DNA of 48,416 nucleotides, filler included, from Streblomastix strix (lineage: Eukaryota): NCBI GenBank assembly GCA_008636045.1. It is 2 parts of 2 records of this genome, joined end to end, with 100 filler letters (N's around TTAATTAATTAA, not from the genome) between each part and the next. Parts side by side here need not be neighbours in the genome. Positions count along the whole stretch, not along the records: positions 24,265 to 48,416 come from SNRW01000246.1; 1 more part is not named here. The stretch is one strand, 5' to 3'. The notes beneath the pieces were generated by a model. It was given only the letters and a program-made list of their open reading frames with translations, did no database searches and was not told the origin of the DNA. Both the position numbers and the translations under genes were made by a program. This document shows positions 21,673 to 48,416 of this stretch, piece by piece (position 1 is the first letter of the stretch; each line of letters starts with the position of its first letter).

Positions 21673-21714
21673 CTTTGAACAATAATCAAAAATAAAAATT
21701 GAATCATACATTCG

Positions 21715-21936
21715 TCAGCGTTCGTTTAGGAATTAAATAAGCTTTAATTATGCTTCTTATCCGCTTGTTTCTTATGCAATCTTAATGATTTCATTGAGTT
21801 TTTCCATTTTAAGTCGTTTATTGTATTGACGTAAGATAAATCTTAATTCAATTTCAGGATCCGATTTTGTTGCAACACATAACAAAGAACTTAAAAAATT
21901 GTTATAAACAAGAAATTCTTCAACAGTAATAAGCAT
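21715..21936 (-). CDS. conserved orphan Z (73 aa)
   Basis: ATKSDPEIELRFILRQYNKRLKME aligns with 43384-43608. Confidence 0.75.
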
Positions 21937-21981
21937 TTGATTTAACCAAAATGAAAAATAATTTTATTACGCATTTTCCGA

Positions 21982-22107
21982 TCATTTTTGTTTAAGAAGA
22001 TTAACGATCTGTACTACGAGTAATATGCACGATGAAATACCTATCAATAAATCCCAGCTTGTTGCGACTGCGCCAGCTCGTCGCTAAATTGCTTGCAATT
22101 TTTTCAT
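21982..22107 (-). CDS. small single-TM peptide (41 aa)
   Basis: WDLLIGISSCILLVVQIVNLLKQK is similar to LDILIIISSILLIVTLLKQ encoded from ATG 43761. Confidence 0.5.
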
Positions 22108-22146
22108 ATTTGTTTTATACTCACTTTGTATTTAACTTAAAACAAA

Positions 22147-23116: not shown

Positions 23117-23120
23117 TAAA

Positions 23121-23809
23121 ACTCTTTAGAGCAGCAACGAAGTTACAATCAATTAAATTTTTCAAATTTTTTCCGATTCGCTTTATAACTCTTTAGAGCA
23201 GCAACGAAGTTGCAATTCCTCATGCTCATTGCATTCGTGCTCCAAAGAGTCATCATTTTTGTTTAAAAATTAATCAAATTTATTTATTATTTTATGCATT
23301 TTATCGATTTCTGCAGAATCTGTAATAATCATATTTTACAATCTTTTTATGAGAAGTTATTAGGAATCTGATTAATTCTGTTTAAAATATTATTTTTACT
23401 TTGCATACTTAATTGCACATAGTTTTCGTTATTACTTTGCAACTTATTAAGCTTGTTCTTTTGTTTGATATTTATATTATCTTCCACGTTATTTTTAAGT
23501 TTTAACAATGCTTTGTTCGGGGAATTTCTCCGGCAACGAGGTTACAGGCTCCGAATTGCTAGGAATTTTAGGTTTTATTTACGCCGCTTAAGCGGCTTAC
23601 TAACTAAAGTTAGCAGGCAACGAAGCGACACCAAATGTTGTCGAGCTTCGCTCGGTTGCTTAATCACTTCGTGAGCGACCCTTCGGGTTGTCGAACTCCG
23701 TTCGGTACGTTTTAGGTAGTTTTTTAACTGCTGCCAATGTTTCAAGTACAATTTATTAAATTTATTCCTTTTCCATTTTACTCTCTGAAAGATTAAGCAA
23801 CGAAGTTGC
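23121..23809. repeat. cluster of GC-rich mini-hairpins and a short direct repeat
   Basis: ACTCTTTAGAGCAGCAACGAAGTTRCAAT at 23121 and 23188; GCAAC-GAA-GTTGC at 23201 and 23797; GCCGC-TTAA-GCGGC at 23583; CGAGC-TTC-GCTCG at 23642; TCAC-TTC-GTGA at 23664; ACCC-TTC-GGGT at 23678; CGAAC-TCC-GTTCG at 23692. Confidence 0.85.
23162..23776 (-). CDS. AT-hook-like basic protein extended by in-frame palindromic DNA (204 aa)
   Basis: Core KQRGRQYKYQTKEQAQQVAK aligns with KVGRPKKYFTEQEAQEMAK (44842-45093). Open frame with TAR=Gln. Confidence 0.55.
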
Positions 23810-23868
23810 GTATTTGGAATTTTTCAAAAATAATTTTTTCACGGATGAATAAGTTTAATATAATTAAA

Positions 23869-24162
23869 TCAATTTAAAAATTAATCTTTAAATTTTTTAA
23901 ATTACGGTGAATTTAGTTATTATTCATTTTCACAGACAAATTTTGTATAATATATCGGTACAGTTATCCTATCCAAATCCGTAAATGGTTTTAATAATAA
24001 ACATTCAACATTTCCGTTATCATATTTAATAAATTTGGCTAATTCATTGAAATTTCTTCTTTATTTCATGTAACGATGCATTGTACGTAAATAATCAACA
24101 TGAATCATTAAAATATTTCCTGGTTTATATTTAGTAAATCCTTAATCTTATTAATCTTATTT
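23869..24162 (-). CDS. C-terminal part of the element A integrase (5' part lost at the gap)
   Basis: KPGNILMIHVD...KQRRNFNELAKFIKYDNGNVECLLLKPF...PIYYT aligns with the C-terminus of 45114-46271. Confidence 0.8.
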
Positions 24163-24164: not shown

Positions 24165-24264
24165 NNNNNNNNNNNNNNNNNNNNNNNNNNNNNNNNNNNN
24201 NNNNNNNNTTAATTAATTAANNNNNNNNNNNNNNNNNNNNNNNNNNNNNNNNNNNNNNNNNNNN
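24165..24264. other. artificial contig-joining spacer
   Basis: 44 N + TTAATTAATTAA + 44 N = exactly 100 bp, a six-frame-stop linker. Confidence 0.9.
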
Positions 24265-26394: not shown

Positions 26395-26436
26395 AAATAT
26401 TATTCCATTAAAAATGGTGTAAAATTATGCAGTATC

Positions 26437-27007
26437 AGTAGTATAGTAAGAAGAAGTTTGTGGCAACTTCAAAATCATATTAATTTATATCAATTTGCCC
26501 ACGATTATAGAATCGGTATGATAAATTGATTTTATTTAATATGATTTTAAACCTGCAACAACCAATCTTCTTCAAACCTATAGAATAAACATATTCGAAA
26601 GCATTAATCCACAACACTAATACAAAGTATGAATAAATAAGCGTTAATCTTAAAAATTAACGCAGCGATAAACGTTGTGGATTAATTATGTGTATTGTCA
26701 TATATATGAACGATAACGATTATTCAAGCGCATGTTCTTAATTTATTATTAAAAAATATAAAGAGTTAACCAATAAAGTTGGTCTTTTTAAAAAATTGTG
26801 TGGAGCAGCGAGTAGGATTGTTTGTTCGGTTTGATTTTTGGGTTAATATTTTATAAAAATGTGTATGAGTAATAATTCAAAGAATTACTGAATAAAAATT
26901 TACGTTTTTCGATTAGCGCAATTTTGCTGCGTTATGTGGGGTCGAGAAAAATCTGTTCGCTTATATGAATGATTTATTAATAAAATAAATGTAAAAATAA
27001 ATTATAT
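26437..27007 (+). repeat. left terminal inverted repeat (~570 bp)
   Basis: Reverse complement of 46253-46822, with about four isolated substitutions plus a short divergent patch near 26915-26940. Confidence 0.95.
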
Positions 27008-27032
27008 GTTATCTAATAAAAAATAATCAAAA

Positions 27033-27224
27033 TCATTTTTTATTAAGATAAACCTCAGCTATACGTATTGAAACTCGTGTATGATTAAGCAAAGAATATA
27101 GGTGGTTTACTTATTTTTTCTTAAGATCTATATCAAAATCAACAATTTCTTTGGTCTTTTATTTATATTCGTTTTATAGTTATACTTCTTGTTGTTTAAG
27201 AAAATCATATTGCGTCTAATCCAT
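27033..27224 (-). CDS. orphan, 63 aa (MDQTQYDFLKQQEV...)
   Basis: ATG after an A-rich leader to TGA, open with TAR=Gln; packed tightly with neighbours. Confidence 0.5.
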
Positions 27225-27249
27225 TTTAAAACGGGAACAAAAATAATAA

Positions 27250-27537
27250 TCAAAGATCATTATCACCTTCATATTATAGATATCTAGATTCTTCAGCATC
27301 TCTTGCTACTCTAGTATTATGTATCTTACATTATTCGTTACTAAGCTGTTTCATTTCTTTAATATATTTATTTTTGTCCCTAACTATTTTAATATTTGCT
27401 TTATAATCATAGATTTGATCATCTGATAAGAATAATTAACAACTATCTAACTAAAGCATTTCATAATTATCATATGGAATATTACTTGTCAATGTTACCT
27501 CACCTTAATCATTTGTATGTACTATTTTTTAAGCCAT
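27250..27537 (-). CDS. orphan, 95 aa (MAQKIVHTNDQGEV...)
   Basis: Open frame with TAR=Gln, AAAATG start context. Confidence 0.5.
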
Positions 27538-27554
27538 TTTAAATAGGGAATAAA

Positions 27555-27761
27555 TCAAATAAATTTTACTAAGATAATTATCATATGTAAATTTACTATC
27601 ATTTCAAATATTATGTCTAATTCATTTTACATTGATTAAGTAACAATACTATCTGTTTCAGCAATAAATTAACGATTGTCCAGTTATTCTTTCAATCTGT
27701 AATAATCATGTGTCATGATATCATAAATTCTTTCAATACTTCTGAGATTATATGGATTCAT
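27555..27761 (-). CDS. orphan, 68 aa (MNPYNLRSIERIYD...)
   Basis: Open frame with TAR=Gln, AAAATG start context. Confidence 0.45.
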
Positions 27762-27790
27762 TTTTAATATAGGAACAAAAAATTAATTGA

Positions 27791-28417
27791 TCAATATAAA
27801 TCAAAATTAATATCTTTATCCTATTCTTTATACTAAACAGGTTCCTCTTAATATTCCTGAGGAGCTTAAACTTATTCAATTACTTATTCTTTTTCAATAA
27901 TCTATTTAGGTTACTTATATCATTTAACTTTTTATTTATATTTCTTTAATTGATTAACAGAATCTTAGTGCTATTGTTTAATAAATGAATTTTCAGTTCT
28001 CAATCTGATTAGTTCTTCCAAATCAAGTTGAGGATTAACATAATTAATTTATGGAGTTTTAGATGTTTTTACAACTCTTTTTCTAACTAATTTCTTTAAC
28101 TGTTTTTCTCTTACTTCGCCTATTGATATTTCATCGCTTTCATTTTAATCCTCCTACGGTTCATAAGATATAAAATCTTCTTCATCATCAATCTATTTTT
28201 AAGGTTATTTTTATACTTTTTTCTTTGGGTCAATTCTTCCTCCACGAGCTTATAACAATAACTTATTTTGTTATGTTTATGTTAATTTTTTAAGTGTCTT
28301 CTTTCCTTCTTCGAACACTTTTATATCTTTATTAATTTGGATTACATATCCATTGTCAAAGTATTCAATATTTGTTCTATTCTCTTTAAAATTCTTTAAT
28401 ACATGTTGTAAGTCCAT
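27791..28417 (-). pseudogene. conserved orphan Y (one internal TGA)
   Basis: Homologue of 19553-20179, same length (209 codons). Confidence 0.75.
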
Positions 28418-28440
28418 TTGAATATTTTTAAATAAAGAAA

Positions 28441-29163
28441 ATGATAAAGAGCATAGAAAGAAACTCAATTCGAATGTCAAAAACCAAAAAATAGATGTCT
28501 GAGATTAAGCATAAAGAATTAACGGATGAAGATAAAATAAGATTGCAATTGATTGATGATGCAATAAGCAGGATCAAGTCAATGCCTGCCATTGACGAAA
28601 CGACAAAACCCAAAGAAAATCCCACTTAAATTGGGAATGAAATTATTCAAGTAACACCTGAATAATTGATCCTTACAGAATAAAAAATTACTAAGTATAA
28701 GAGCAAATATAATAAAAATAAATATAAACAAATTGATAAAACAACTGCATAAGTTGACCCTGAAGAAGTAGTTAAAAACACTTATCTTTCTCATCGAAAT
28801 CTTGAAGTAATGAAATTCATTATTGACAAATTATGGGCTACAGTTATTGTAAGAAAAAGAGGTGATGATTTTATACTTTCATCAGATAATTTTATTAAAC
28901 TTTGGTCATTAATCACTTAAGAGAATGAAGATGATATTGAAATTGTATTAGAAGAACCGTTAATGAGATCCCATTCGTGCATAGGTAAATCATATAAAAA
29001 GAAAGATTTGATAAAAGTAATGGATCTACTAATTAAAAATATTGGTATATCTGTCATAGATAATGTATTATTTAATTCTATTAGGAAACTGTATCGAATC
29101 AACTAGGATTTTGCACGTTTGTCTGATGCACCAACATCAGAGATTTCCAAAGATGATTTTTGA
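28441..29163 (+). CDS. conserved orphan X (240 aa)
   Basis: Open with TAR=Gln; homologue of 18754-19512. Confidence 0.75.
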
Positions 29164-29215
29164 AATAATTTAGCTGTCTATTTTTTACATTTAATTATTT
29201 TTATCGACAACAAAA

Positions 29216-29629
29216 ATGCTTTCACAATTAGAAATAGCCAAAGGTAAATTCCTTGTTCATCCTCAAATTATACCGAAGGAAATATACATTGAACCTATAT
29301 ATTAATGTAGTGATGATTTCTATTAACGAACATTAAATAAAAATAACAAACCTTACTATAAGTTACTAAAACGATACGGTACTAGCCCAAGTTATCCATA
29401 ATAAATTTACATAATGATTGAGAAGAGAAATAATGAACATATTGATGACACAATTAAATAGTATAACTAACAGATGAAAGTCTTACATGATAATATGGAT
29501 ATAGGTATAAAATATCGTGAATTGAAAGAAGCAGTTGAATAAATGTAAACTCAAACAAAATATATTTAATATAACTAATATGGAGTTAAATCCACAGTTA
29601 ATGGTATAGATTATTATGATAATGAATGA
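29216..29629 (+). CDS. orphan, 137 aa (MLSQLEIAKGKFLVHP...)
   Basis: Open frame with TAR=Gln, preceded by TTATTTTT...AAAAATG. Confidence 0.6.
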
Positions 29630-29653
29630 TCGTTGATTATTTTTGTAATAAAA

Positions 29654-30411
29654 ATGGAATAGTAATTAAGCGATTTAGATATGATTAATGAGGACGAATA
29701 GATTAATTAGTAAGAATAGGTAAGTAAAATAATATAGTAATAAGAGGAGTAATAAAAATAAAATAAAGAACATAACATATTATTATAAGTTATTGATAAT
29801 GAAATTATTAAGTATTTAATTTTTTGAGTTAGTTCTTTAGGAATTCTATCGATTTTGTTAATCTACATATTGACCAGATTATTCGTGGGGTTATGACATT
29901 TTTATCACCTATCATAGTTGGTAAAATTATTAAATAAGGTGGTACAAGCAACTAAATTCTATTAGCTAATGGAGATACTATTGATAAAGATAAGTTAGAC
30001 TATGAATCTATTGAAGATGCAACTTATTAATCAATTGCTTATGGAATGTATGAACGTTTAATTTAGGATACATTTACAACTTAAAACAGTAGAGTATATA
30101 TATCGTTGTAAGTAACTCATTCTGACCCTAATACATTAACGGAATCAGGATATACTATGTTTTCTATTATTAATAATGCTATAAAGTCAAAATTCACAGG
30201 ACCACCACATAACATTCCCATAAATGCTATGATGTTTGCATAAAAGGTAATAGGTTACCCTATATGTTGGAATTGCGCTATTCCTATAGATTGCTTCATT
30301 AATCCTAATGAAAATGTGGTAATAAATACATAGAGCCAGCTTCATTTACCTGATGATTTTTGTTTTCAATTTTGTGATTCTTATGTAATTCATAATTAAT
30401 CAGCTAATTGA
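29654..30411 (+). pseudogene. short fibre-like protein (frameshift in a T-run near 29821)
   Basis: GGTSNQILLANGDTIDKDKLDYE and the rest of the C-domain align closely with 17941-18711. Confidence 0.7.
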
Positions 30412-30430
30412 CAAATTTAAAAATAAACAA

Positions 30431-30577
30431 ATGGATCCCTTCGGTCTTGCAAGCTAAGGATTTAATGCGGCAATCATTTATGCTCTTGACTAATTGAACA
30501 TTTACTGGCATGCTATCTTAAAGACTATATGGGAAGCAGCTATTAAATATGCATGCTAATCAAAGATTTGCCGTTGA
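30431..30577 (+). CDS. orphan peptide, 48 aa (MDPFGLASQGFNAAIIYALDQL...)
   Basis: Fills the space between the short fibre and the capsid gene; open with TAR=Gln. Confidence 0.45.
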
Positions 30578-30597
30578 AAAATAAATTTATTTTTGTT

Positions 30598-32580
30598 TCA
30601 TTGAGGCTTAATAGCTCCACCAGCAAGCACACCAATTATATCGATATTTAGTACTTATGGCATTGAACTTTCATCAAATATAATTCTAACAAACGCATCA
30701 CACGAGTAGTGCAACATTGGTGTAATAGATACTTTAGTAGGTTCAGTATATGCTCTAGTTCCAATGAATTATATGAAATCATTTTAGTTCTATAATGGAT
30801 TTATATTAGTTGTGTCAGTTATTCCTTTAGTAAAATTTCCTTACAAAATAACTTATATATTAGTTCTTGATCCTATCTTTGAATTGTTATATCCTCGGAT
30901 AAATGAATTATCAGTAGCCAATTTCCATGCAAGCATATATTTGTTAGAATATAGTGTTTTAATAGCTTTACTTCCACTATACAATGTTGTTAAATAGAAT
31001 ATGTTAGCTGTTTTATATTAGTCGGTATTATTTATCAATCCGTAGTAATTTTTCTTATCATCAATATTCAAGTTCTCGAATGTAATTGAATGATATAGAT
31101 CTAAAGGAGCACTAACAACATCTTAATCAACGAAGAAATCAAACATTTATCCATTAGTTGCTTAATTTAATGATTTATATGGCTATGGGATAACATTATT
31201 CTAATCAATAACTAGATTAATTCTTGTGAATAATACAGGGAAAAACCATGTAGGATTTTAGGGCATAGCAAATGTCATAAATAGTGACTTTATATTAGAG
31301 AATGACATAATGCTTTACATTGATCCACTACCTTTATCAAATCCACTAAATGGGAAGTTCGATGATTATGTTCTAAATACTTAAGTAGGAAAATTAATTA
31401 TTTTTTGTTATTGAATCAGAATAATTATAGCTTCTTCATTTTCAATATTAAAGCATACGTTCTAAATCTCCAACACATCGAATTTAGCTGTCCCAATTTA
31501 ACTAATTGAATTTTGTGGTACTTTATCACCAATAGCCACATTTCACATATTTACAATTCTTACATTATTTCTAAGATATTCAAGTCCAGTGGAATCTTCT
31601 CCTGCTAAAAGATAAACAATATTAGGTTTTTCAGGAGGAATCATATGATAAGCTAAATGATTATTCATTATAGGGTCATTTTTATTAAGCCAAACAACCT
31701 TCAAATCTTATAGGAGATCTTAAATCTATAAAAATTGATGTAATATTGCATAATTACGTGTAAGAACAGGGAATGAATTAAATATAGGATTTAGTTAGTT
31801 ATGATCAAGTACTCCACTAAATGTAATATCACAAGGTATTCTATAATAGAAAGGTGTTCCAACTGTAGCAGCAATAGCTTATCTATCAATTTTTCAAAGT
31901 TGGATATCAATAAATACTCCACAATGACGTTTTCCTTCAATTATACTTTCAAGATGTGATACGCTAACACTATTTTTAGTACACAAATCACTAAGAGAAC
32001 TCCGACTAATTACAGCTTATTCTCGTGCATAGAATGCTGATCCCCAAAATGCTGTTGCATCTTTCAGTAATTAGAATTGGTAGAATGGTTCACATGCTGT
32101 TGAGAAACCGATCCAAAATTATAGAAGTTCTCATGATTCAATTCCGCCTGCTGTTTTACCATAATATCCTTATGACGCTTATGACATATTTGTAGTCCAA
32201 TCGGCTGTCGGATCTTCATTACCATTGAAATTAGTTCGTGCGACTAATTTACCTGCAGTATTGCATTCATTAAATGTTTTATTTAATTATATCGCTAATG
32301 TATTTGCTGGTATAGTAATTGTCCAATTTACCTAACAAGTTTATACCACTGAACATGCAGATTTACCTCCTGCTCCTAACAATACTCTAGTATATTTAAC
32401 TCCACTAGATATAAGTTCAGTAATAGGAGAATAGAAAAAATTTTATTTTGATATTTCAAATGATTGAGGATGGATAGATAATGTTTTTATAACTTCCCCA
32501 AGTTACATATATCCGCTAACGTAATCAGGATGTTGCATTTTTGCTAATCGTCCAAGATAATCATTGGATTTGAAAGACAT
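30598..32580 (-). pseudogene. putative major capsid protein (660 codons, three internal TGAs)
   Basis: Largest unassigned beta-rich ORF in an element that has a packaging ATPase. Shares an identical 23-nt leader with the penton-like gene. The jelly-roll fold is inferred, not shown. Confidence 0.6.
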
Positions 32581-32600
32581 TTCATTGAAACAAAAATAAA
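32578..32600 (-). promoter_or_regulatory. 23-nt leader TTTATTTTTGTTTCAATGAAATG of the MCP-like gene
   Basis: Identical to 43330-43352; ends in the start ATG. Confidence 0.65.
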
Positions 32601-32645
32601 TGAACTGATAAGATGTTTATGTTAAAAGTTTCTATAATAAATCAA

Positions 32646-32852
32646 ATGGGTTATTTCTCTGGAATAGCAAATTTTGGGTCGAAAATATTAGGTGGCGTTA
32701 AGAAAACAGCATAATGGGTTGTACCAGCATTACATAAAGTTTTATCCACAATATCAGGTCCTGTTGATATGATTCATCCTGCTATTGGAAGTGCATTAGG
32801 TGCATGAGCTAATCACGCAGGTGCTGTTGATCGACTTGTAAATAAACGCTGA
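32646..32852 (+). CDS. small amphipathic peptide resembling the adenovirus protein VI lytic helix (68 codons, one internal TGA)
   Basis: MGYFSGIANFGSKILGGVKKTAQWVVPALHKVLSTISGPV... versus adenovirus pVI WSGIKNFGS. Confidence 0.6.
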
Positions 32853-32880
32853 TCTTGTCATAATTTATTTATAAAGAAAT

Positions 32881-35106
32881 ATGAACAATTCACTATCCCA
32901 ACAATAAATCCGTACAGTTAGATAACTTATCACTAACGATATTGCTTACTATATTCAATATTAGAAACGAGGTAATTCTAGTGGTGGAATGATATCAATT
33001 GAAGAATACTAATTATTCATAGATAATAACAATGCATTAGTCTATGCAGCTAACAATTAAATCGTTGATGGAATGGCATCAGATTACGCATTAAAAAATT
33101 GAACCTAATGGGTTGCAAACAATAAAAAATTGAAAGTGATTAATTTTGATTTTGTTGCATAGATTAATTGGCTGATTAATTAAGTGAATTTACTATAACA
33201 ATCAATTTGAACAACTGAAAAGGATATCACTGATATAAAAAATGATATTGATAATATTAATCAAGAACTATCCCGATAAACACATTTCAGAGGTTATTAT
33301 TTATTGAATGCAGATATATAAAATTTACCTAATTCCGCTAATGGAGATTTTGCTTTTAATACAGAAAGTGGAACAGTTTGGATGTATGATTAAAATTGTT
33401 ATAATAGTGGAGATATAGTACCTGATCAAGTAACTCCTGCAAGTGATACATTACCATTAGTTGATGGTACAGCAGCTGCAGGAACTAGTACAGAATATTC
33501 ACGTGGGGATCATGTTCATCCACTAAATGTAACGACTACTATTCCACCCAGTGATAGAGCTAGTGGATCAGTTGGTACAACTAATTTTTATGCAAGAAAC
33601 GATCATTCTTATCCCCTCAATATAACAACTTCAATACCCCCACAAGATAGTTCTAGAGGATTAGTTGGAACAACTAATTATTATGCTAGAAACGATCATT
33701 CACATCCAATTAATGTAGAAACTAATGCTTCAAATATCCCAATTGTTAAGGGTGTTGGTACTAATGGAACATCAGCTTTTTATGCTAGACAAGATCACGT
33801 TCATCTTTAATAATTAACATAAGATGGAAATGTTACTGCAACAAAATTTATTAAGACATGTGGAACTGCTTCAGAAGTGTTATGAGCTAATGGTGATACA
33901 ACTACAATAGATAGTAAATTTTCAAGGACATATTCTAGTGAAGCAGGTGGATATATTCGATTATATGTATTTCCAACAGGAACTAGCACTGGAGCACCAT
34001 ATATATAATTCTAAATATAATGTGATACAAACGCTATGCAAACTATTGATTTGGTCCCTAATTATACCGTTAATGGAATTGTTGATCTTTATAGCAATAT
34101 TACTGCTCCAACTTATGTATTAACTGGATATAATATATACTATAGAGTTGATTAGCTATTATATACTCATATAGGATCATATTCTTCTGCTGTATATACT
34201 GCATGGATTCATACGATGACAGGTAGCGGAGGTGTAACTGTTACTGTTAGTAAATAAAGCACATACTGGGTTACTCGAGTTACTGATATATTAACATAAG
34301 ATATTGTCACATAAATCGCAGGATCATAAACATAGATTCTAATTTCATATGATTTAGGTAATGGTGGAATAATAAATAATATGCTATATGTTAACCCATT
34401 AAATCGATCTTATATTACTTATAATAATGGAATTAGAATAGGAAATTATAATAATTATTCAGCATTATATTTAGGTGGTTCAACTACAGCTATAAATACT
34501 ACACAAACTGGTTAATGGGAGATAAGTAAAACAAATGATAATGTTCTGTCAATTAACCAATCTACTCTACGATAGGCAGATCATAGTGTTGGATTAAGTA
34601 TTATCGGAGATTGTACATAATTAAAATTTAATAATGTTGACTTATCTGCAAGGGTATCGAATGCTGTATAAAAGACTGGATAAGAATTATAAGTAATTGA
34701 AGGAACAATTAGGAAAAAAGATGATGATGAAGAATCGATTGCCGGTGAATATTTGACCAGAAAAGAGATAAATGATAATTATGTTAGTATAACAGGTGAT
34801 TAAACAATTACAGGTAGAAAAGCATTTAATGGTGTATTCTAGGTAAATCCGACTGGTACAAATTATAATGAAAGAATCTGAATAGCAAAATCAACTAATA
34901 GATTAAGTTAAATATTCTTTGGTGTTGATCCAGCTTAATATAGTGGATAATTATATGTTTAATGGGCTGCTGGCATCATGATCAGATAAGATACTATGTC
35001 ATAAGAATTTGTAATTTGTTTGACATCAGATTTTGGAAACGATAATAGAGGATTACGTATCTCAGCTGATGGAAATACATTAACATTCAGTGGTCGAACC
35101 CTTTGA
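32881..35106 (+). pseudogene. long phage-like fibre protein (741 codons, at least three internal TGAs)
   Basis: Coiled coil, four YxRxDHx(H/Y)(P/L) repeats, GTASEVL.ANGD, QTITGRKAF, and two VNP....YN..I(R)I modules. Confidence 0.75.
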
Positions 35107-35126
35107 TTAATTTATTTTTGAAATAA

Positions 35127-35585
35127 ATGGAAAAAGCTATAACATAACCAATCAAACAATTATTCAATGAATTAGTTAAATATCATTTCTAAGACAATGA
35201 TACAATTAAAGTTACAATTGAAGCATTATAAAATTTGTTAAAGAATGATGTAAAAGAATCAATCCATCCATTACTCTAGGAATTAATGAGAATCAATAAA
35301 ATGTTCACTAATCAATTGCAATAATTATAAAATATAAAGAATATGGTTGATGAAGAAGATTATAAAAATAAGCTATTTAATGAATAGGATAAGTACTTTA
35401 AAAATAAATATCTACTATTCAAAAATTCATTAGATCTAAACAATTAACTACACAAAATAAAGAATTACATTATTTCTGAAGCTAGTGAAGAAGAAAAATA
35501 GATTTATAATTAGTTTGTGAATGATGAGTAATACAGTAACTTTGTCAATTACTATTAACTTAATTTAAAATAATAAGATTGTTGA
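35127..35585 (+). CDS. orphan, 152 aa, helical
   Basis: Open with TAR=Gln; leader TTTATTTTTGAAATAAATG. Confidence 0.6.
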
Positions 35586-35793
35586 TATATTATATGTATT
35601 TGATTATCTCTTCAATTTAATCTTGGATTGGTTCAATGAAAGTATAATGTTTTTTGAATTAGTAATACAATTATTTTTCTTATTAATCAAAGTCATTTGT
35701 CTCGATTAGGGCTTCGAATATTTTGAATATCTCATAATCTGTTGCACAATACTTTAAACTAATGTTTGTAGCCAACTAATACAATTATTCCAT
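35545..35793 (-). CDS. orphan, 82 aa (MEQLYQLATNISLKYC...)
   Basis: Open with TAR=Gln; 3' end overlaps the convergent neighbour. Confidence 0.45.
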
Positions 35794-35803
35794 TTAATTA
35801 ATT

Positions 35804-36172
35804 TCAAACAATTTATTTATTGGGTTAATTTAACATTTTAAGATATAGGATATATCTCCAATGAGTTACCTATTCCAAGTTTTTATTAGCTATTTCTTCG
35901 TTCAGAAATATTTCGATTTATTCTACAGATAGTTATGACCAATGAATGCGTGGTTAATTTTTATCCATTTTTCATTTACAAAAGAATTGTATAATGAAAA
36001 TCGTTATATTTAATGGGACCAATACTATATCGAAATAACTCCATAAGGTTTTTATTACATTAACTGTATCAATCAATTTATTAGGTATGGATACTGATAT
36101 GATTGATGTTATAAAATTAACGCCATAGAACATGTAATTCATTATACTTATGATCAAATTTAAATTGCTCAT
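35804..36172 (-). pseudogene. membrane protein, split by one TGA at 35972-35974
   Basis: Both halves are in frame and align with the uninterrupted 17474-17872. Confidence 0.7.
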
Positions 36173-36219
36173 TTAAACTTTTTCTAAAGTTTAGAATCTT
36201 CGATTATATTATTTTTAAA

Positions 36220-37235
36220 ATGACACTACAAAAATTATAAGATATAACATTTACTAATCAAGATCTATTGAACGAATATAATACTAAGCCATTAATGAAG
36301 AATTCACTGTTCCTTATTAATGGTAATGATTATATTGTTGGAGCTGTTGGAAGTGGCAAAACAACATTAATGTGTAAGCTAGTTGTGGCATATAAGAAAA
36401 TCATTGATCCATTCATATTATACTTCTCGAATTATGGTGCAGATGAAACTATGTCATTAATCCTTAATAGTAATAACATATAACTAATGAATGTAACTTA
36501 TGGAGAAGCAATGTTATTTCTACCTGAATTTGATGAGATAAAATAATCGACTAAGGAGATGTATACATGGTACAAAATGATTGAGTAAAAATAATCATAT
36601 ACTAGTGATTTCATTAAGAGAATGGAAGAATTAATAATATAAAATAATGAGATTAAAAAGAATGAAAAACTTAATGATTATCTTAATAAAATTGCTGAAC
36701 TATTCAAATAAAAAGTAATCGAAACCATTAATACATATAGCTAACCAACCAAAATATTGAGATTCGATCTCCCCGCGCTAATTCAAAACGTTAGTTACTA
36801 AAAGAAATTCAAAATAGTCGATAAAGATCAACTTTATGTAAAAATATTGAAAATACCTATATTAGAAAAAGCGTAATTATTAAATACATTAATGATATTC
36901 GATGATATTGGATCTAATGCAGATATACAACGATTCAGTTCATAATTATCTAAAACAATACCACATTTCGTTAGTGATTCGCTTTATTCAAAAAATACTA
37001 TTTTCTTTATAGCTTAACGTCCTACATATTTGTTCAAGACAGCGAGAATATAAACCCACGTAATTTGCTTAGGCGTGCACTTAGGTGAAACTGATCTAAG
37101 ATAAGTGTACGATGAAAATACCTATAAAATTTGGATTTTGATGAATTCCAATTACTATACAACACATTAAAGAAATATGAGTTTATTATTCTGAATAAGT
37201 GGCTCGGAAAATTTGAGATTCTCAAAAATAAATGA
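36220..37235 (+). pseudogene. A32-like packaging ATPase (frameshift near 37120)
   Basis: GAVGSGKTT, LMIFDDIG, FFIAQRP; aligns end to end with 16419-17450. The SRH motif is changed to SLY. Confidence 0.9.
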
Positions 37236-37239
37236 ATCT

Positions 37240-40200
37240 TCATTCATATGAATAATCATATGCAGTTAATCCAAATAAATAAGGACAGCATGATTCATTT
37301 TCTAGCACGATAGCTTTTGTATGAATTCCTGTGATTCCATTTTTCTCAATTGATAATTAGCTCATCTAATGATTCTTCTATCCCAATCTCATATTAGTGC
37401 ATTTTGTTATCTTGCCTTCATTAATGCAATCGACTATCTACTCTTTAGTTAACTTATTAGGTTTATAATTAACACCTTTCAATTTTATTTTTGAATTAGC
37501 ACAGTAGTTTGTTTCTATCATGTAATTTTTAGGAGCTAATGCAATCATTGATATTCCTTATCTTTCGATCACTAATCCTAATATCTTCTTCTCATCATAT
37601 ACGTCTCCTCTAATGCTTGAAAAGAAATAGTTAGCATTATCGTTATAAAAATCTGAGGTTTTAATAATAGCATTAAATTATTACGTAAAATCTTCATTAG
37701 GATTTCCGCTAATTGCCCAATAAGCTGAATTAGTATCTTCTTCAATAAAATGTATCCTATTCATATCTAAGCATTTATACATGAAGTTATATGTGAAGTT
37801 TGGATACCAATATTTAGCGTTATCTAATACAAAGAATGCTAATTATAAAGGAGTTTTACAACTACAATGCTCTGGGTTCATTTATACAATATAACTGTCT
37901 TCAGATATCTTTTACTCATCCATGAACGCATTAGATCTAATAGCTCTTTCTGTTTACTTTCTATTCATTATTTTAACTTTATGATATTTCTCTGTATTCA
38001 TTCCATCACTACCATATGAGCTATTCATAACTATCTTAAAGAATTATTCTTATCCCTTATTCTCATCTAATTTAACTTTAATCCTGTTTTTAGTAAATTC
38101 CTTAATAAATAAAATGATTTAATCATGTTTATTGAATAACACTATCTATTTCACATCATAAATAATAAAATGACAATCGTCGATTAAGAATCATAAATAG
38201 TATGAGCTAAATGCCATATATTTTCCCATAGTTGATGATAGATTAGTTAGTTTTCTTTATTTTTGATCAGTCTTAATCGTATTGTCTTTCATATGTTTAT
38301 ACATATAACTACCGATAGTTCTTTCATCAGTTGTGAATTCATAATTCCTTAGAATAAGTGGAAAATTAGTGTAATCGTTAAGGTAATTCTCTTAAATATG
38401 ACCTTTAACTTCTGCGATGAATAATTGACCATCAGCTGTAAATCTATTTGTGCTATTAATTATTCTTAATATTGTTTATTTTGAATGATCTCTATCTCCT
38501 TCAATCTTTGCTGTTTATGATCCACAAATATACATTTTTACTCCTGTATATTTAATAAATTTATGTGGCTCTGATGATATAACGCTAGGATATAAAGAAT
38601 TAAAATCAACACCAACTACATGAGTAATTCGATGATCAGTTGTTAGAACTGTTACTTTCTTGGCTTCCTTGTTATAATATAATCGTTTAATAAAATCAAT
38701 TCCTGATCTATTGACTCGTTGTATTACATTTGATTACCCTCCAGTTATTCCTGATCAGATTAAATGATATACATCAATATCTGTAAGGTTAATTAGCAAA
38801 CATTTTATCATGCAAAATTTACGTAATTATATGAACAATTTACTTATATTTTTATCTTTGTTAGAACAGAAGCAATTGCAATATAAACAGCAAGGCTAAA
38901 CGTTATCTTTTGAATGACCTTTTAAATTGTCGATTCTGTCTAATGTTGGCTTATTGGCAAAAGTGAATTTACATCCGCAAATGCAGCAATTAGAATCTTT
39001 GAATAATTGTTTGAAATAATCTAAATCCTTATCTAATACATTAACTATTGTGTCTCTTCTTTAATATTTATCTTAGATTTGATATCCCCACACTTTACTC
39101 TATCAATAGTTCTCAGTTAAGTAAAATTTCTATGATAAATCTTCAAAATTAGGATACACTCCATTAATATCAAAATCCTCATAGGCTTTAGCATATTTGA
39201 TAGCATTAGAGCATGCTGCCATACTCATGAAACTAAACATATCAATTTTATATTTAAATTGTAAGCTAATGAGAGTCATTAATGGTTTGATCATAATATA
39301 AGTATCTTATTCATTATAGAATTATAAGTTATCCCATCTATTTTTATATCGTTTTGCATCTTCTAGATAAATCTAATAATCCTTCTAACTAATTTTTGTT
39401 TTCTTTAATGATGAATTGAAATCTTCCATCGTAAATGGTTCTGATTTGCTAAGTGTATCATTAACGTTATCGGTGTTAAAAGTTTCATAAGGAAATAAGC
39501 CTTTTATATCATCATATCCATCCTCAAAATCTTTGGCTGCTTACTTTAATTCCATAGGTTAAAGATACGTTAACATATCAACAAATTTCACTTTCAAATT
39601 CAATTTCTTATGATGTACAATTACTTGCTTAGCTGTTGAAGCGCTACCTATATAATTACTAATTGTCCAATCTTTACATTACATATATGATATGATTAAT
39701 GATATATCAAATCTTGAGCTATTAAATCCAACAATTGGTACTTCCATTGAATAAGGAATTGTTTCATCAATGGTACAGGCTTCTGTTATGTATTAGTTGT
39801 CAGCATTAACTTACTCAGCTTCTTTAAACAATTAATTTAACCATTAGACTATAAAATCATCTCAATCCTATTAGCTAAAAAAGATTTTCTTAATACCATA
39901 TTTGATACGAATAGTTGAAGCAACTGATAAAGGAAATAGCTCATACATTTAATAACTTGATTTAATGAACTTTTTATTAACGATTTTAGGTACTGTTTCA
40001 AGATCATATATGATGAAATATTGTGTAGGTTTAAACTCATGTTATCTTCCATTTGCTAATAGATATTGCTTAGTTTTGTTCTGCATAATGTGTAGGACAA
40101 ATGGCTTTTAGATAAAGTCCAGTTTAACTTTCTTAACTATTTTTCTTTCGTTATTTTCACATTTAATAATGTGTTTCTCATAGTCTCTTGAATAATTTTT

Positions 40201-41828
40201 ATCTTTAGGATCAAATACTTTTGAGTTACAATGTGGACAAAATTTCAATCCTATTAATGCTTATTTATTAGCTATAGCGAAAGCATGTGATACCTTATTT
40301 CCTTCCCAAATCGATTCAACAACTAATATATCGATTGTCTTAATTTCTTATTTTCATTTTACTCTTCCTATTAATACATTACTTACAATCCTCTATAATA
40401 ATTCTTATGTTCATTATCTTTATAGTAAATGTCTTAGTTAATTTTTAATTTTTATGATACAATATTAGCGTATTTAGTTATATCTAATCCATCAAATGTC
40501 TTCAATAAATCTGTCATTTTTATATTCTTTGAATCGAATGGTAGCTCTAATACTTAACCTAATTGTTGCTTGCTAATGCTAATTATTTCATTATTAAAAT
40601 AACGTTTCTCCTTTGAATCAGGCTGTAATGCCTTTGCTACTACTTCCATATAACAATTATTATTATTATTCCCAGTATTTTTACATATAACATTTTTGCG
40701 ACCATTACAATGAAAATCGATTAATTTTTTCATGCAAGCTCCAACAATTTGAGGTGAAAGATTAAATGTTTTAATCATCATTGAATAGATAGCTATGTAA
40801 CATTACCTTATATTAACTAATGTATAATTCTACATATTTATTATCTCAGATTTAATGTATTAATAATACTCATTAATATCGTCTTCAGATTATATAAGTT
40901 TAGGAGCATGTTCTTATTTATGAGTATCTCTATGTAATATATATCCATAATCAACATAAACGAATTCATGTTAATCATATTTTAATTCTTCGTAGATTAC
41001 ACCGAAATTGAATTGAATCTTGAATGCTTTATGGCGCTATTACTCATAAACCTAATCAATAAACTATTTAATATCTGATAATGATTAGATAACATTATTA
41101 TAGTGTAATTCACTAAGTTACTCATTCGGTTCTGTTTTTTCTATTGTACGTTCACGAGCAAATCCTTATCTTGCATCATAAACTGTTGCAATAAATTGCT
41201 CCATATTCACAGGAAGAAAATATAATAGAGTACCTGCATCATTATCTATTTCTCTAACATTCTATCCATTAAACTACTTAATTCTATCATTAATCTCTTT
41301 ATTTTGTTTGATAATTATTTAATATTGTAGATTCGCATCATATTCTTCATCCATAATTTTTTTGGCTTATTCTTGTTCTCTGTTGATTAAATCAGTCCAA
41401 TAATCATCAGCATATTGTTAATCTTATTCTCTACGATATTCTTATAAATCTTATTCATATTAATTTGAATGATAATGAGTTAAATCTTAATGTAATTATC
41501 GATTCTATTCTTATAAATCATTATAGTAAATATCTGCTTATTGTTACAATTAATCCCTTCGATATTCTTATAAATCTTAATCATATTGATTCTATTTGAA
41601 ATGCTTAGTCATATCTTTTGATTTGATAATTTACTGATTGTATTAATGAATCTATTTAAGATGAGTTTTCAAATTATTGTTGTTATTTCTACATCGTTTC
41701 TTATAATTAATTTTGTCTAAATATTTTTTAAGTTAATCTTTAAGCTATTTTACTTTTAATTATTCATTGATGTTTTTGTTGTTGATTTTGATTAGTTTAA
41801 TTAGCTCCTCTTTCTTTGGGTAAGACAT
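37240..41828 (-). pseudogene. protein-primed family B DNA polymerase with long N-terminal region and HNH-like insert (~1530 codons)
   Basis: ExoI YDLET, ExoII GFNSSRFD, KGLFPYE, ITGG, motif A DFNSLYPS, motif B KIVMNSSYG, motif C degenerate (EDTNS), ALAPKNY and KLKGV. Several TGAs and a frameshift near 40350. Confidence 0.92.
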
Positions 41829-41862
41829 TTTGTTTAAAATAAAAATAATTTATTTAGACAGC

Positions 41863-43332
41863 TCATTAAAATTGTATTTCTAGAAGTAAATTATTATACA
41901 TATCCATATATTACATTGGTATCTTTCTTCCAAAATTATCATATAACGTAAATACTAACGATTTGTTCTGTCCCACAAGACATTACTGACTCATCATATT
42001 CTCTCCTCATAATACTGGAGCATCAACCAAATTCTATTTGAAACATACATTTGAGAATCCATTACCTCCTATTGATTGTAAAGTTATTCCTTGTAATTAG
42101 TTAGATACACAAATTATCAGCATTTATGGATACTCTAGAAAATTCGCTATATATGGACAGAATATTGGTAAATCAACTTCTAAACTTTAACTATCATGTT
42201 TAGTTTAATAGAACCATACTTTGAGATCAATTTGTTTAATAGTTGACGATAAATTAACTAATTAATTGACTCCATTCTCATTCTATTTATCGTAAAGATC
42301 TTACCCACCAACTAATTATACATATAGATTTGGAGATAAAAGTATACGATTAGCGAACCAGTAAGTATTGTTTTATTAACAATAATCAGTGACTACTTAT
42401 GGTATAAATTAACCATAATAATTAGTTCTTCCAACAGAAGTATAAATATCCTACCATTCAACTATACTAAAAGCTGATAATGAATTGATAATTCTAACAG
42501 GAAATGTGTTAATATTATTAATGACTTATTAAATTGTTAATTGTTATACATTAATTGGTTAAGCATCAGATGTAGTAAATGTACCATTAGCTTTTATATC
42601 TACTTACTTACCGAATAGGTACCTTATTGATAATCAGTTACCTTATGTAAAATATTTAGGTTCAATTGATGTTATGTAATTATTTGATGTAGTGCAATAT
42701 AATCGTATTAAACCTATCATTCGATACAACTCATTAACTGTGGAATCTAATATCCAGTAATGATAGAGAAATGCATCAATTCTAAGGTTATTGTAATTGA
42801 TTGCTGATTTCACTAAATCTTAACCATAATTCTAGTTTAATGAGAACATATTATTTTATAATTTTTAAACATGCTCGTTAATTGCATTATTAAAGCATAT
42901 TGCCCCACTATTCAAAGTCGATTATGATCTAAAATATTTCTCAATTGCATCAGTAAAATTATCATATTATGTTAGTGTTAGGAAAAATAATTATGGAGTA
43001 TATTTATAACCTTAAATTGTTTAATCTCTATTATAAGCATTATTTATTTCAGTATTCAAACTAATACGTATTGGAGGTGAACTATCTAGTAATTAACAAT
43101 GAAACTAATCCTCACCAATTTACTATTAGAAATAGATTTTCCTTGAATCAGTAGATACTATATTATGCTATATTTCTATATAATCATTGTTCAAATAATA
43201 TGTCAAATTAATTGGAATGTTATTGATACAATTAACTTGAAAGCTTTAACTTCCACAAGGATTAGTTGTTTACCATGTTACGTAATCCTTATCTGAATCT
43301 GAGTTGATAATTTGTAAGCCGATGCTAATCAT
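41863..43332 (-). pseudogene. putative minor capsid (penton) protein (489 codons, two internal TGAs)
   Basis: C-terminal SLVFTLYDNFGRKIPMQYM...LLLEIQF; homologue of 20191-21672. Confidence 0.6.
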
Positions 43333-43352
43333 TTCATTGAAACAAAAATAAA
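43330..43352 (-). promoter_or_regulatory. 23-nt leader of the penton-like gene, identical to the MCP leader
   Basis: CATTTCATTGAAACAAAAATAAA on the + strand at both loci. Confidence 0.65.
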
Positions 43353-43383
43353 CTCCAAACATGGCTTGGCAGATCGAAGATCT

Positions 43384-43608
43384 TCATGCTCTTTCATTTA
43401 AATACTATATCTATTTCATTACTGCTGATTAGCTGCTCTCTGAAGCTATTTATACAATTTCTTTTAATTGTTCCATCTTAAGACATTTATTGTATTATCT
43501 AAATATAAATCTCAATTCTATCTCAGGATCATTCTTTGTCGCTCCTGATATAAGTTAACTCAAAAACGTTGAATAAGTCATAAATTCTTCACAATTCATT
43601 TTTTGCAT
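43384..43608 (-). CDS. conserved orphan Z (74 aa); frame is open upstream to ATG 43761, adding a TM segment
   Basis: ATKNDPEIELRFIFRQYNKCLKME; homologue of 21715-21936. Confidence 0.75.
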
Positions 43609-43798
43609 ACTTTTAATCTAGAATCTCCGATTATTGCATACTTTTAATTTAGAAAAATAATTTTATTTTAACAAAGTTACTATTAGCAAAATGCTAGAAA
43701 TGATAATCAGAATGTCCAAACAAATTGGTTGTTATTTCTTAATCGGTTATTTTGTTTCCATTTGCTTATTACTAAAATATTAATTAACTCTAATTAAA

Positions 43799-44833
43799 AT
43801 GTCAAAACGTGAAATTAAAAAAGAAGAAACAAAACGACCCAAAGGACGACCGAATAATAAACCAACAGCAACTAATGCAAACGAATATATGTAATTAAAG
43901 AAACCTTTTACGCATTAAGGACAAACTGTTAATCCATTAAATATAGCAAAAGTTCCATAAATTTTGTGGGATTTAGGAAAATATGAGTAAGCATAAGGTA
44001 GAATGAAATAAATAGATTATTAAGCATTATTGAGGCAGATACATCAAGTAGATAAAAGTGTTTCGTTTTATGAAGCTGATGCTGGAATACAAGGATTAAA
44101 AGGCACTGTCAGAAGAGAAAGAATATATGGATCTTTTGATCCCACGGGATTAGTTGCTGATGCTATTTAAACGTAATAATTGGTGTAATAAATTTTGGCA
44201 CCATAATAGTTATAATCATAATAAGAAGCCAATTTCAATCATAATTTAAACATTAATGATCGATTAGATTAACCATCATAACGAGATCCAAGTAATATAG
44301 GACCATCAGCTCCTGATCATAGTATAAAAGATAATGATGATGAAAGAATGGAATTATTTGGAGGATATAATCGTTCCTAAATATAACCATAATAGGAACT
44401 AAATCCTTACTCTAAAAATACTGATTAATAAACTGATTTTGCTCAATAAGTTGATGCAACATAGGAAGATGCCGAAGATGAAAAGGAAGAGGCTATAGAA
44501 GAATAAGAACTTGAAGAAGATAATGAAGAAACTAATAGAGAATTATAATATATTGGAGGATTAAATTGGGGATAAGAACCAGTGCATCCTCACTATAATA
44601 AAAGACCAATTGGACAGATTAATGATTTTGGTTATAGAGTAATTGATTAAGGATTATCTGTATATGCAAAGAAAAAACCTATGTCCGAAGAGGAATAATT
44701 AAACTAACCAAAAAAATAGAAAAAATTCATCTCCAATAAAGAATTGAAGAGCACATTAAAAGCATAATCAAAACTCAAAAAATAAACAAGCCGATAATCA
44801 CGCAAGAAGCCATAGGATAAGAAATCAAAATGA
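43799..44833 (+). CDS. orphan, 344 aa, basic termini with RPKGRP AT-hook-like motif (candidate core protein)
   Basis: Open with TAR=Gln; homologue of 22147-23116. Confidence 0.7.
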
Positions 44834-44841
44834 AATTGCGC

Positions 44842-45093
44842 TCATAGGTTGGGATCTTCAATTAATCGAGAAATTTACTCTAAAATATCATCTGATAATA
44901 TTGTTTTATTAAATATATCAATTATTCTTGATTACTAAATAGAGAGTTATTCTTTAAATTATTTTTACTTTAAACGTTTTCTCTTCTTAGCTTCACCACG
45001 ATATTTCTTAGCCATTTCTTATGCTTCTTATTCGGTAAAATATTTCTTTGGTCTTCCGACTTTTTAAGTAAGTTTTAAGATTTCTGCGTCCAT
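44842..45093 (-). CDS. small AT-hook-like basic protein, 83 aa
   Basis: KVGRPKKYFTEQEAQEMAKKYRGEAKRRKR. Confidence 0.65.
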
Positions 45094-45113
45094 TTATTTA
45101 TCTAGTAAAAATA

Positions 45114-46271
45114 TCAAACCAGTTTAAAAGTTCTCTTATATTTATCTTTTAATGTTTCAGTATTATTTGCAACCTTATGAGTATAATAAATTGGTAAGTC
45201 AAAAATCATAATATCATTGTATGGTTTCAATAGCTCGCAAACAACATTTCCATGTTCATATTTTATAAATGTAGCTATTTCGTTAAACTATCTTCGTTAT
45301 TTCTCAAATAGATGTGCAGTCTTTTTCAAATCAAGATGTATAGTTATAATATTACCTTTCTTTAGAACATATAGATTATCCTTGTATTGTTATCCCTTTA
45401 CATCAGTTTATTCTTTCATTTTTTATCAAATGTATATTCCTTCTAAATTTTCATTCTCATTTACTTATTTAGGAGAGAATTTCTATTTAAAAGCTTAATG
45501 TTTTGTGTTATTATAATCATCTACAACTTATTTTAACTATTTATTATTATCCATTAGTTAAGGATCTTTTTCAAACGCATTCCTTATAGTTCTGACTATT
45601 GAATCAACTACTCTATTTTTATTAACGAAAGGAGATGAGTTATAGAAATAATTTATGTCGTTCTCTTTCAAATAATCCTTAACTTATTTACTTTCCAACG
45701 CTGATTCACCATCTGATCTTATATTGCTAACAAGTTAGTAAGATTTTAATTATTTTATACACTTTACTAGTTCTTTAGCTGATTTATCTTTAATTGGAAA
45801 CGCTACTAGAAAGTTAGTGTTGATATTAATACAAAATAGATATTATCGAATTACTTTTTTAATTGTTGGATGCATTATAAATATAATATCTATTTCCCAA
45901 CTCCTTAACTCAGGTGAGAAATAGGGACGTTAATACTTCTTTAATGGCTTCAATTTAATGTCTTACACTATATAGGTTTTATCTTTAACTTTACTCATTA
46001 ATGGATTCTTAATTTTTTATGGATCCTGTTAAACCTTTGGTTTTTAAGGTTTAACATTCTACTTTATTCGTTCAGCATGATACTTTTAAAAGTTATCAAG
46101 ATAAATCTTATACCATTAAGAAATAAATTTATCTTCAAATTATTCATCCAAAATATTTAGGTTGAATTACTTTTTAAATACAAAATTCTAATTCTTAATG
46201 AAATCGATTAATTTTATTTTATCGACTTTAAACGCTTTATCATCTATAAATTATATAATTTATTTTTACAT
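45114..46271 (-). pseudogene. retroviral-type (rve) integrase (385 codons, TGA at 45426-45428)
   Basis: WEIDII...YLFCININTNFLVAFPIKDKSA...IRSDGES...NRVVDSIVRTIR...YNNTKH...SP. Confidence 0.88.
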
Positions 46272-46822
46272 TTATTTTATTAATAAATCATTCATATAAG
46301 CGAACAGATTTTTCTCGACCCATAACGCTAACTAAAATTGCGTTAATCGAAAAACGTAAATTTTTATTCAGTAATTCTTTGAATTATTTCTCATACACAT
46401 TTTTATAAAATATTAACCCAAAAATCAAACCGAACAAACAATCCTACACGCTGCTCCACACAATTTTTTAAAAAGACCAACTTTATTGGTTAACTCTTTA
46501 TATTTTTTAATTATAAATTAAGAACATGCGCTTGAATAATCGTTATCGTTCATATATATGACAATACACATAATTAATCCATAACGTTTATCGCTGCGTT
46601 AATTTTTAAGATTAACGCTTATTTATTCATACTTTGTATTAGTGTTGTGGATTAATGCTTTCGAATATGTTTATTCTATAGGTTTGAAGAAGATTGGTTG
46701 TTGCAGGTTTAAAATCATATTAAATAAAATCAATTTATCATACCGATTCTATAATCGTGGGCAAATTGATATAAATTAATATGATTTTGAAGTTGCCACA
46801 AACTTCTTCTTACTATACTACT
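46253..46822 (-). repeat. right terminal inverted repeat (~570 bp)
   Basis: Inverted copy of 26437-27007, ending ...TACTATACTACT. Confidence 0.95.
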
Positions 46823-47097
46823 AATATCTACTTGAGATTATACTATTTCACTCTTTTATTCAATTAAAGATTTTCTTATTCAAATTAATCTTATCAATTT
46901 GATTATTTTTTTAATTTATTTCATGTATTCATCTACCAATATTGAAACAACTAATAGATTTAAAGTAATATATTCTATATTTTTCATACATTCGTATTGT
47001 ATTATTTAAAAAAAATAAAAGAAAAACTAGAAATGATTATTAATTTTGAAATGAATTGTATTGGTTCGAATGAGATGATAGAAAGAAAATAATATAG

Positions 47098-48123: not shown

Positions 48124-48416
48124 ATGGAACAAACCGATTTCGAGACGCACGGCGATGTGTAAATTGTCCATTCTTTCAACGAGGTCTACATTTATTTCTA
48201 TTCATACCCTATTTTTCAATTATATTTTTTTTATTCATTACTTATTTTTACAGATGGGCCTCTCAGAAGACCTTCTTCGTGGCATAGTTGGCTATGGATT
48301 TGAGAAACCATCAGCAATCCAACAACGAGCGATTGCACCAGTTCTTCGAGGTCGAGATGTAATTGCACAAGCTCAATCAGGAACTGGAAAGACAGCTACA
48401 TTCAGTATTGCTGCAC
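48124..48416 (+). CDS. EIF4A3: DEAD-box helicase of the eIF4A family, most like eIF4A-III; 5' part (intron 48184-48253)
   Basis: [42 protein letters not shown]...[20 protein letters not shown] (Q motif and motif I). Confidence 0.85.

Follow-up and report, generated by a model that had tools for sequence, protein, structure and literature searches.

We conclude that positions 26437–46822 of a 48,416-nucleotide stretch of Streblomastix strix DNA (assembly GCA_008636045.1; two records joined through filler, hereafter the window) very probably hold a full-length, integrated virus genome of the Maverick/Polinton type. Its genes, now broken, use TAA and TAG as codons for glutamine. This genome is likely an old copy of a family that occurs in many copies in S. 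strix or a close relative. Polinton-type viruses in the reassigned code of this host have already been published (Bellas et al. 2023, PMC10120064), and the copy itself is ordinary and dead. Nor is it hidden by its genetic code, as the initial annotation had held: besides those published code-6 viruses, S. strix is annotated in translation table 6, and several paralogs are labelled ‘Major capsid protein’ in UniRef.

What delimits the element? Mavericks/Polintons have terminal inverted repeats (TIRs) ending in (AGT)2 and are flanked by a 6-bp target-site duplication (TSD). The corresponding features of the window are:

26431–26436, no strand: left TSD, AGTATC, matching the right copy at 5/6 positions
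26437–27007, plus strand: left TIR with AGTAGT end, from the TIR comparison
46253–46822, minus strand: right TIR with AGTAGT end, from the TIR comparison
46823–46828, no strand: right TSD, AATATC, matching the left copy at 5/6 positions

Across 568 aligned columns, 6 substitutions separate the two TIRs (~570 bp), which differ besides in one short indel patch and are ~99% identical; a 5/6 match between the flanks would arise with a chance of 0.018, as judged from flank-derived pairs. Long TIRs and duplication, both read in this way by the initial annotation, give the element the end structure of a Maverick/Polinton and show it to be full length from TIR to TIR. Each TIR also contains an internal 39-nt imperfect inverted repeat (82%, 26-nt spacer; 26458–26561 and 46698–46801), a possible hairpin near the terminus. 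Inside the element GC content is 26.8%; the left flank has 20.9%, the right 27.2%. An Rfam search returned 0 matches.

Read with the standard code (table 1), the whole window contains a single ATG open reading frame (ORF) of at least 80 aa, and the element none; read with table 6, 19 assigned genes span 18,272 of the 19,245 nt (95%) between the TIRs, so the ORFs that had been reported to appear only with TAA/TAG as Gln do so. TGA-free stretches of at least 200 codons number 34, compared with a mean of 19 (maximum 26) in 20 shuffles. Because a single stop codon in AT-rich DNA leaves long frames by chance, the code was tested instead on alignments in which TAA, TAG and TGA had been masked beforehand, to standard-code capsid relatives and to a second element in the window:

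15309–24162, no strand: second, partial relative (fibre 1, ATPase, fibre 2, penton candidate, integrase C-terminus), ending at the scaffold gap 24165–24264

Over 1,526 codons of 7 genes shared with this second element, CAA/CAG opposite TAA/TAG was enriched 9.9-fold (18 cases; next residue 1.9-fold). Among nine standard-code capsid relatives, Gln was again the commonest residue at these positions (46/243, 3.8-fold), with Arg close behind (33, 3.5-fold), and the conserved Gln after the Walker B motif of the ATPase is coded TAA in both elements. As judged from these alignments, which bear out the proposed reassignment, the element’s genes read TAA/TAG as glutamine, the code also used by the S. 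strix viruses of the Metamonada-group (MMN) capsid set. A cyclin-like host ORF (13973–14611) uses TAA/TAG as Gln as well, with 11 such codons inside its Pfam match, so host and element have a common code. TAA or TAG makes up 162 of the 197 Gln codons (~82%) of five core genes, and the lineage thus likely evolved for long in a host with the reassigned code. Between the two elements, dN/dS under table 6 is 0.19, pooled over the 7 genes.

Four genes inside the TIRs carry the assignment to Mavericks/Polintons:

30598–32580, minus strand: major capsid protein (MCP), 660 aa, 3 in-frame TGA
36220–37235, plus strand: A32-like packaging ATPase, frameshifted at ~37,125
37240–41828, minus strand: Polinton-type family B DNA polymerase (pPolB) with an inserted endonuclease VII, 4 TGA, frameshift at ~40,350, motif C DTNS
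45114–46295, minus strand: rve-type integrase, one in-frame TGA at 45428

The MCP is 87% identical, gap-free over 654 aa, to an uninterrupted S. strix protein (P0297), and belongs to a family of 630–700 aa; in sequence it matched none of the capsids tested from Pfam, PDB and animal Polintons. A low-confidence first model was replaced by one from a more diverse alignment; the model of the paralog P0005 matches double jelly-roll (DJR) capsids, and we therefore assign a predicted DJR fold to the family. The MCP expected of a Maverick/Polinton is thus in place, and the fold that had been suggested for it is borne out through this paralog. In the capsid tree, 22 S. strix-type capsids lie on one side of a fully supported branch and 12 metagenomic ones on the other; as the tree stems from a quick search in which long branches meet and the deeper order is unsure, we take just two things from it: that the 22 S. 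strix-type rows are monophyletic, and how long the terminal branches are. The capsid profile search covers the best 150 of 211 matches, and weaker Trichomonas-type matches could be among the other 61. A profile of 9 distant capsids retrieved only 5 unnamed proteins. For one relative, P0157, the nearest ESM Atlas cluster comprises 522 unnamed members with Parabasalia as the commonest taxon (0.96), tied with capsid clusters of nucleocytoplasmic large DNA viruses. Three metagenomic, standard-code capsid relatives (P0217, P0229 and P0230) reside on element-sized contigs of 20.6–21.8 kb, possibly complete free or integrated genomes; exact peptide-pattern scans of metagenome_contigs turned up no locus, an absence that means little in scans of this kind. 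An 18/19-nt inverted repeat (30586–30604 and 32582–32600) brackets the MCP gene exactly.

The polymerase region, which matches a PHROG DNA polymerase (E 1.2e-5) and endonuclease VII (E 1.6e-11) and had no match in Pfam and PDB sequence searches, carries the Exo I–III and Pol A–C motifs. Maverick/Polinton polymerases are protein-primed and carry terminal-protein, vOTU and TPR1/2 domains. Upstream of the exonuclease, a Cys (40652) and a His (40287) stand, by eye, in a vOTU-like context, at the position where a vOTU domain has been described in Polinton polymerases (bioRxiv 2024.03.18.585575); we infer that the N-terminus comprises predicted terminal-protein and vOTU domains. A literature search for Polintons combining endonuclease VII and pPolB found no paper. 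For the integrase, the match to Pfam rve falls short of the gathering cut-off (E 5.5e-4); by eye, two acidic motifs are present, with an Asp at the expected third (Glu) position. In the ATPase, Walker A reads GAVGSGKT and Walker B IFDD, and the open, 62% identical copy in the second element (16419–17450) reaches 25.7 bits for Pox_A32 at a cut-off of 22.8. Polymerase and integrase genes of the Maverick/Polinton type are thus present, though broken, and the packaging ATPase is recognised through its open copy; profile matches and motifs together uphold the identity that had been proposed from pPolB, rve integrase and A32-like ATPase within TIRs.

Around these genes lie further virion candidates:

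41863–43332, minus strand: penton (minor capsid) candidate, 489 codons, 2 in-frame TGA
32881–35106, plus strand: fibre candidate 1, with 31-residue repeats (93-nt repeat), 4 in-frame TGA
29650–30411, plus strand: fibre candidate 2, frameshifted at ~29,820, 65% identical to the open copy 17944–18711
32646–32852, plus strand: amphipathic peptide, pVI-like or cupiennin-like candidate, in-frame TGA at 32805

The penton candidate is 56% identical to an open copy in the second element (20191–21672), has only 11 S. strix homologs, and received no Pfam, PHROG, NCBIfam, PDB sequence or Atlas assignment; an Atlas score of 0.76 to aspartic proteases was at chance level and was rejected. Its best support is a 23-nt leader through the ATG that is identical to that of the MCP gene (32578–32600 and 43330–43352), while block-shuffled interiors contain on average 0.07 repeated 20-mers. 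The core of this leader, TTTATTTTTG, also occurs upstream of the ORF at 35.1 kb and of the second element’s penton and fibre 2 genes, and is likely a structural-gene promoter or initiation signal. Fibre candidate 1, 51–56% identical to 15312–16379 in the second element, has a Pfam BppL_N hit under the cut-off (E 1.6e-3) and one short gut-phage match, and the open copy of fibre 2 weakly matches gut phage cr112_1 (E 4e-3). The hydrophobic moment of the peptide, a measure picked post hoc, was reached by 32 of 5,000 shuffles; pieces of it are 80–89% identical in S. strix P0006 and P0007, and its PDB matches were chance ones only, none to adenovirus pVI. In the gene models of P0006 and P0007 the peptide is joined to the MCP on the same strand, and in the window the two diverge, which suggests gene-order variants. 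In the ORFs scanned with Pfam, PHROG and NCBIfam, no adenain/Ulp1-type protease was detected, and no catalytic His/Cys context is conserved in both elements; the test is weak, and several ORFs lack an assignment.

Is the copy alive? In-frame TGA codons interrupt the MCP (3), penton candidate (2), pPolB (4) and integrase (1)—10 in the 3,389 codons of the core genes—as well as fibre 1 (4), the peptide (1) and the ORF at 27.9 kb (1), and frame changes affect pPolB (~40,350), ATPase (~37,125) and fibre 2 (~29,820). Polymerase motif C reads DTNS, and the MCP departs from 24 of 221 conserved columns (75 paralogs: median 4.4%, range 0–14.8%); its terminal branch measures 0.12, that of its sister 0.011. 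‘Complete’, the word used initially, thus holds for the length of the element but not for its integrity: with MCP, pPolB, integrase, ATPase, penton candidate and both fibres interrupted, this is no intact autonomous virus but a pseudogenised fossil, unable to make virions or to replicate alone. That TGA, too, is read through, as Trp or another residue, and that the genes are whole, would accommodate the many breaks that consist of a single in-frame TGA behind which the frame continues, yet we give this idea next to no credence: TGG is in normal use, TGA is the sole stop left in table 6 and ends genes, and there are frameshifts and missense damage besides. TGA as Trp was rejected, as TGA aligns with varied residues.

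Several points weigh against a decayed Maverick/Polinton. The rve and DNA-polymerase matches are weak, and the MCP fold rests on a 67%-identical paralog, the AlphaFold2 model of the window MCP itself (75 close paralogs) having reached a pLDDT of 52 and no Foldseek/VIA match. Penton, fibre, peptide, terminal-protein and vOTU roles are candidate assignments made from sequence. Bellas et al. report that stops in such elements are often assembly artefacts (PMC10120064), and at 19 of 40 variant positions shown, the window letter is found in no contig of run X1, where a different letter accounts for 30% or more of contig depth at 1,697 of 20,000 positions. Finally, there is a roughly nine-fold gap that one insertion with even decay thereafter fails to explain: the TIRs imply 0.5% divergence per branch (confidence interval 0.2–1.2%), the stops 4.8% decay per site (2.3–8.9%; equal-rate model).

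The third of these points bears on the main rival, the proposal that the element is intact and potentially active, its stops and frameshifts being artefacts of an assembly that collapsed many related copies. Polishing did clear premature stops from a similar element in that study, the family is very repetitive, and the TIRs are 99% identical. Still, we hold this to be improbable. Most lesions are substitutions spread over 19 kb (~5%), whereas the TIRs and the neighbouring element’s ATPase, penton-candidate and fibre 2 genes are almost clean; moreover, a mosaic of copies would carry letters found in other contigs rather than unsupported ones, and as Logan contigs lose rare variants, a private copy is expected to go without support.

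Either gene conversion acting on the two TIRs of an old insertion or a last jump in trans would reconcile the nine-fold gap, and the data fit both. In the latter case, which is compatible with a dead, full-length Polinton, the genes would have decayed before the proteins of an intact relative copied the dead genome and inserted it anew, resetting the TIRs. Uninterrupted capsid genes of the same subfamily, such as P0297, do exist. We nevertheless regard the jump as rather unlikely: the TSD mismatch fits an older insertion slightly better, another letter makes up at least 98% in X1 at 35 of the 40 rows shown, so that no amplification followed the decay, and conversion, which also accounts for these data, seems slightly more probable. 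In either case, near-identical TIRs next to decayed genes warn against dating such elements by TIR identity.

How might the ancestor of this fossil Polinton have lived? Going by known Polinton biology, its linear DNA would have been replicated from the AGTAGT ends by its own polymerase, primed by a fused terminal-protein domain that the vOTU domain would set free. The ATPase would package the genome into a capsid whose icosahedral shell consists of the 660-aa MCP. The co-regulated 489-aa protein would be the putative vertex penton, two fibres would serve attachment and the amphipathic peptide membrane crossing; insertion through the rve integrase would leave the 6-bp duplication. No RNA polymerase was found among the element’s genes, and so the ancestor would rely on host nuclear or helper-virus transcription. 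It may be objected that transposition within the genome is all that this capsid-carrying family still does, and that infectious particles are no longer formed. No virion has been seen for Maverick-Polintons (10.64898/2026.06.19.733378), and exact peptide-pattern scans found no relative in viral_contigs, although at their low sensitivity such an absence means little. The pooled dN/dS of the two elements, by contrast, indicates purifying selection on virion genes, the fibre candidates and amphipathic peptide have been kept, and capsid relatives sit on 20–22-kb metagenomic contigs, free or integrated; we therefore deem a pure transposon unlikely.

The remaining frames of the element are as follows:

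27033–27537, minus strand: two small ORFs (27250–27537, 27033–27299), likely accessory, no family match
27790–28417, minus strand: conserved ORF, one in-frame TGA, 49% identical to 19553–20176 of the second element
28495–29163, plus strand: conserved ORF, 51% identical to 18760–19512 of the second element
29216–29629, plus strand: ORF, likely accessory; contigs of three runs skip 29163–29636
30431–30577, plus strand: small ORF of ~48 aa, frame only
35127–35585, plus strand: helical ORF, no significant family match
35545–36140, minus strand: broken conserved gene in pieces in several frames, 51% identical to ~17500–17850
43384–43761, minus strand: conserved ORF with hydrophobic N-terminal stretch, 63% identical to 21718–22059 over 71 aa
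43799–44833, plus strand: low-complexity acidic/basic ORF, possible core protein, 37% identical to S. strix P0129; counterpart at ~22.2–23.1 kb
44842–45093, minus strand: small basic ORF, weak helix-turn-helix matches only

Transmembrane proteins had also been listed among the gene products; one such candidate stands, by eye, in the conserved ORF 43384–43761, but the other hydrophobic frames are antisense shadows (for example, 29222–29899, minus strand). Related contigs join 27004/27008 directly to 27790 and skip 27005–27790 and 29164–29635, which makes the ORFs located there variable cargo within the family.

The second element is 64–76% identical to the first in nucleotide sequence, with a different gene order and mostly open genes (ATPase 343 aa, penton candidate 493 aa); within the window it has no MCP or polymerase. 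Related DNA occurred in all 30 bins in four runs of three studies, three of these runs being labelled termite gut metagenome; run X1 may be the source sample. Homolog names, code and habitat make S. strix or a close relative the likely host. Outside the elements, the window holds the host’s cyclin-like gene (13973–14614, Pfam E 1.8e-7) and, by eye, the start of an eIF4A-like host gene in the right flank (48251–48416; 5/5 Gln codons CAA/CAG). A zinc-knuckle ORF (Pfam zf-CCHC, E 9.6e-5) and two by-eye transposase remnants (at 3–653, 2575–3582 and 5378–6112) mark the neighbourhood as rich in mobile DNA.

What does an ordinary dead copy add? Its value lies in a full TIR-to-TIR gene map for Metamonada elements, which the 2026 framework leaves ungrouped (10.64898/2026.06.19.733378), and the analysis points to a capsid family with standard-code relatives. 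We tentatively propose, at somewhat less than an even chance, a second, uncounted lineage of Streblomastix Polinton-type viruses. This lineage would lack a maturation protease and combine its own 630–700-aa DJR capsid with a large penton, a pair of phage-like fibres and a peptide that lyses membranes. About four-fifths of its Gln codons would have been rewritten to former stops after it entered a host with a reassigned code, its metagenomic relatives still using the standard code. If true, such rewriting would lock a virus family into its host. If the published set lacks the capsid family, viruses make up more of the S. strix genome than the ~11% estimated there (PMC10120064), and the family would offer a paired system for studying how DNA viruses adapt to the genetic code of their host.

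Compared with known systems, the element resembles Mavericks/Polintons of groups 1 and 2 (Polintoviricetes; adintoviruses), with which it has TIR ends, TSD, PolB, rve integrase, A32-like ATPase and a DJR MCP in common and, by prediction, the probable N-terminal vOTU on PolB. It differs from them in that no adenain/Ulp1-type protease was detected (a weak test), in an MCP without sequence match to the animal Polinton capsids tested and in the endonuclease VII insert of its PolB. Polinton-like viruses (PLVs) and MELD viruses of protists resemble it in other respects: most PLV groups lack a core protease (10.64898/2026.06.19.733378), and phage-like fibres and pVI-like or cupiennin-like genes are reported from some MELD viruses and adintoviruses (Starrett et al., PMC8502044). 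Of the unusual virion module initially claimed for this lineage, such fibres and pVI-like peptides had been described before; a distinct capsid lineage is plausible, albeit unproven. Most PLVs are without the pPolB–rve pair that the element possesses, and no sequence link to a named PLV capsid group was found.

In our literature search on endogenous or Polinton-type viruses of Streblomastix, the study by Bellas et al. (PMC10120064) was the only one found on these elements. Its MMN capsid group was defined from Trichomonas, S. strix and Evosea through a BLASTP network (25% identity over 30% length), with all 820 S. strix hits in cluster MMPC_40, and its S. strix elements use TAA/TAG as Gln; in the sections covered here, no S. 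strix copy is described as a whole element. We found none of 12 locus tags from the window family in the part of the supplement searched, which is no proof of absence as the S. strix rows of Table S5 lie outside it. The S. strix MCP folded in that study, EZS28_010462, measures 562 aa as against the 630–700 aa of the window family, and neither it nor three S. strix references of Table S5 are among the best 120 homologs of the window MCP. By eye, however, the T. gallinae and S. strix MCPs of Table S3 have motifs in common with the window family, and these motifs, together with proximity in the Atlas, suggest a distant kinship. MMN viruses of S. strix and Trichomonas Mavericks resemble the element described here in a likely identical host, in TAA/TAG read as Gln and in a divergent DJR MCP.

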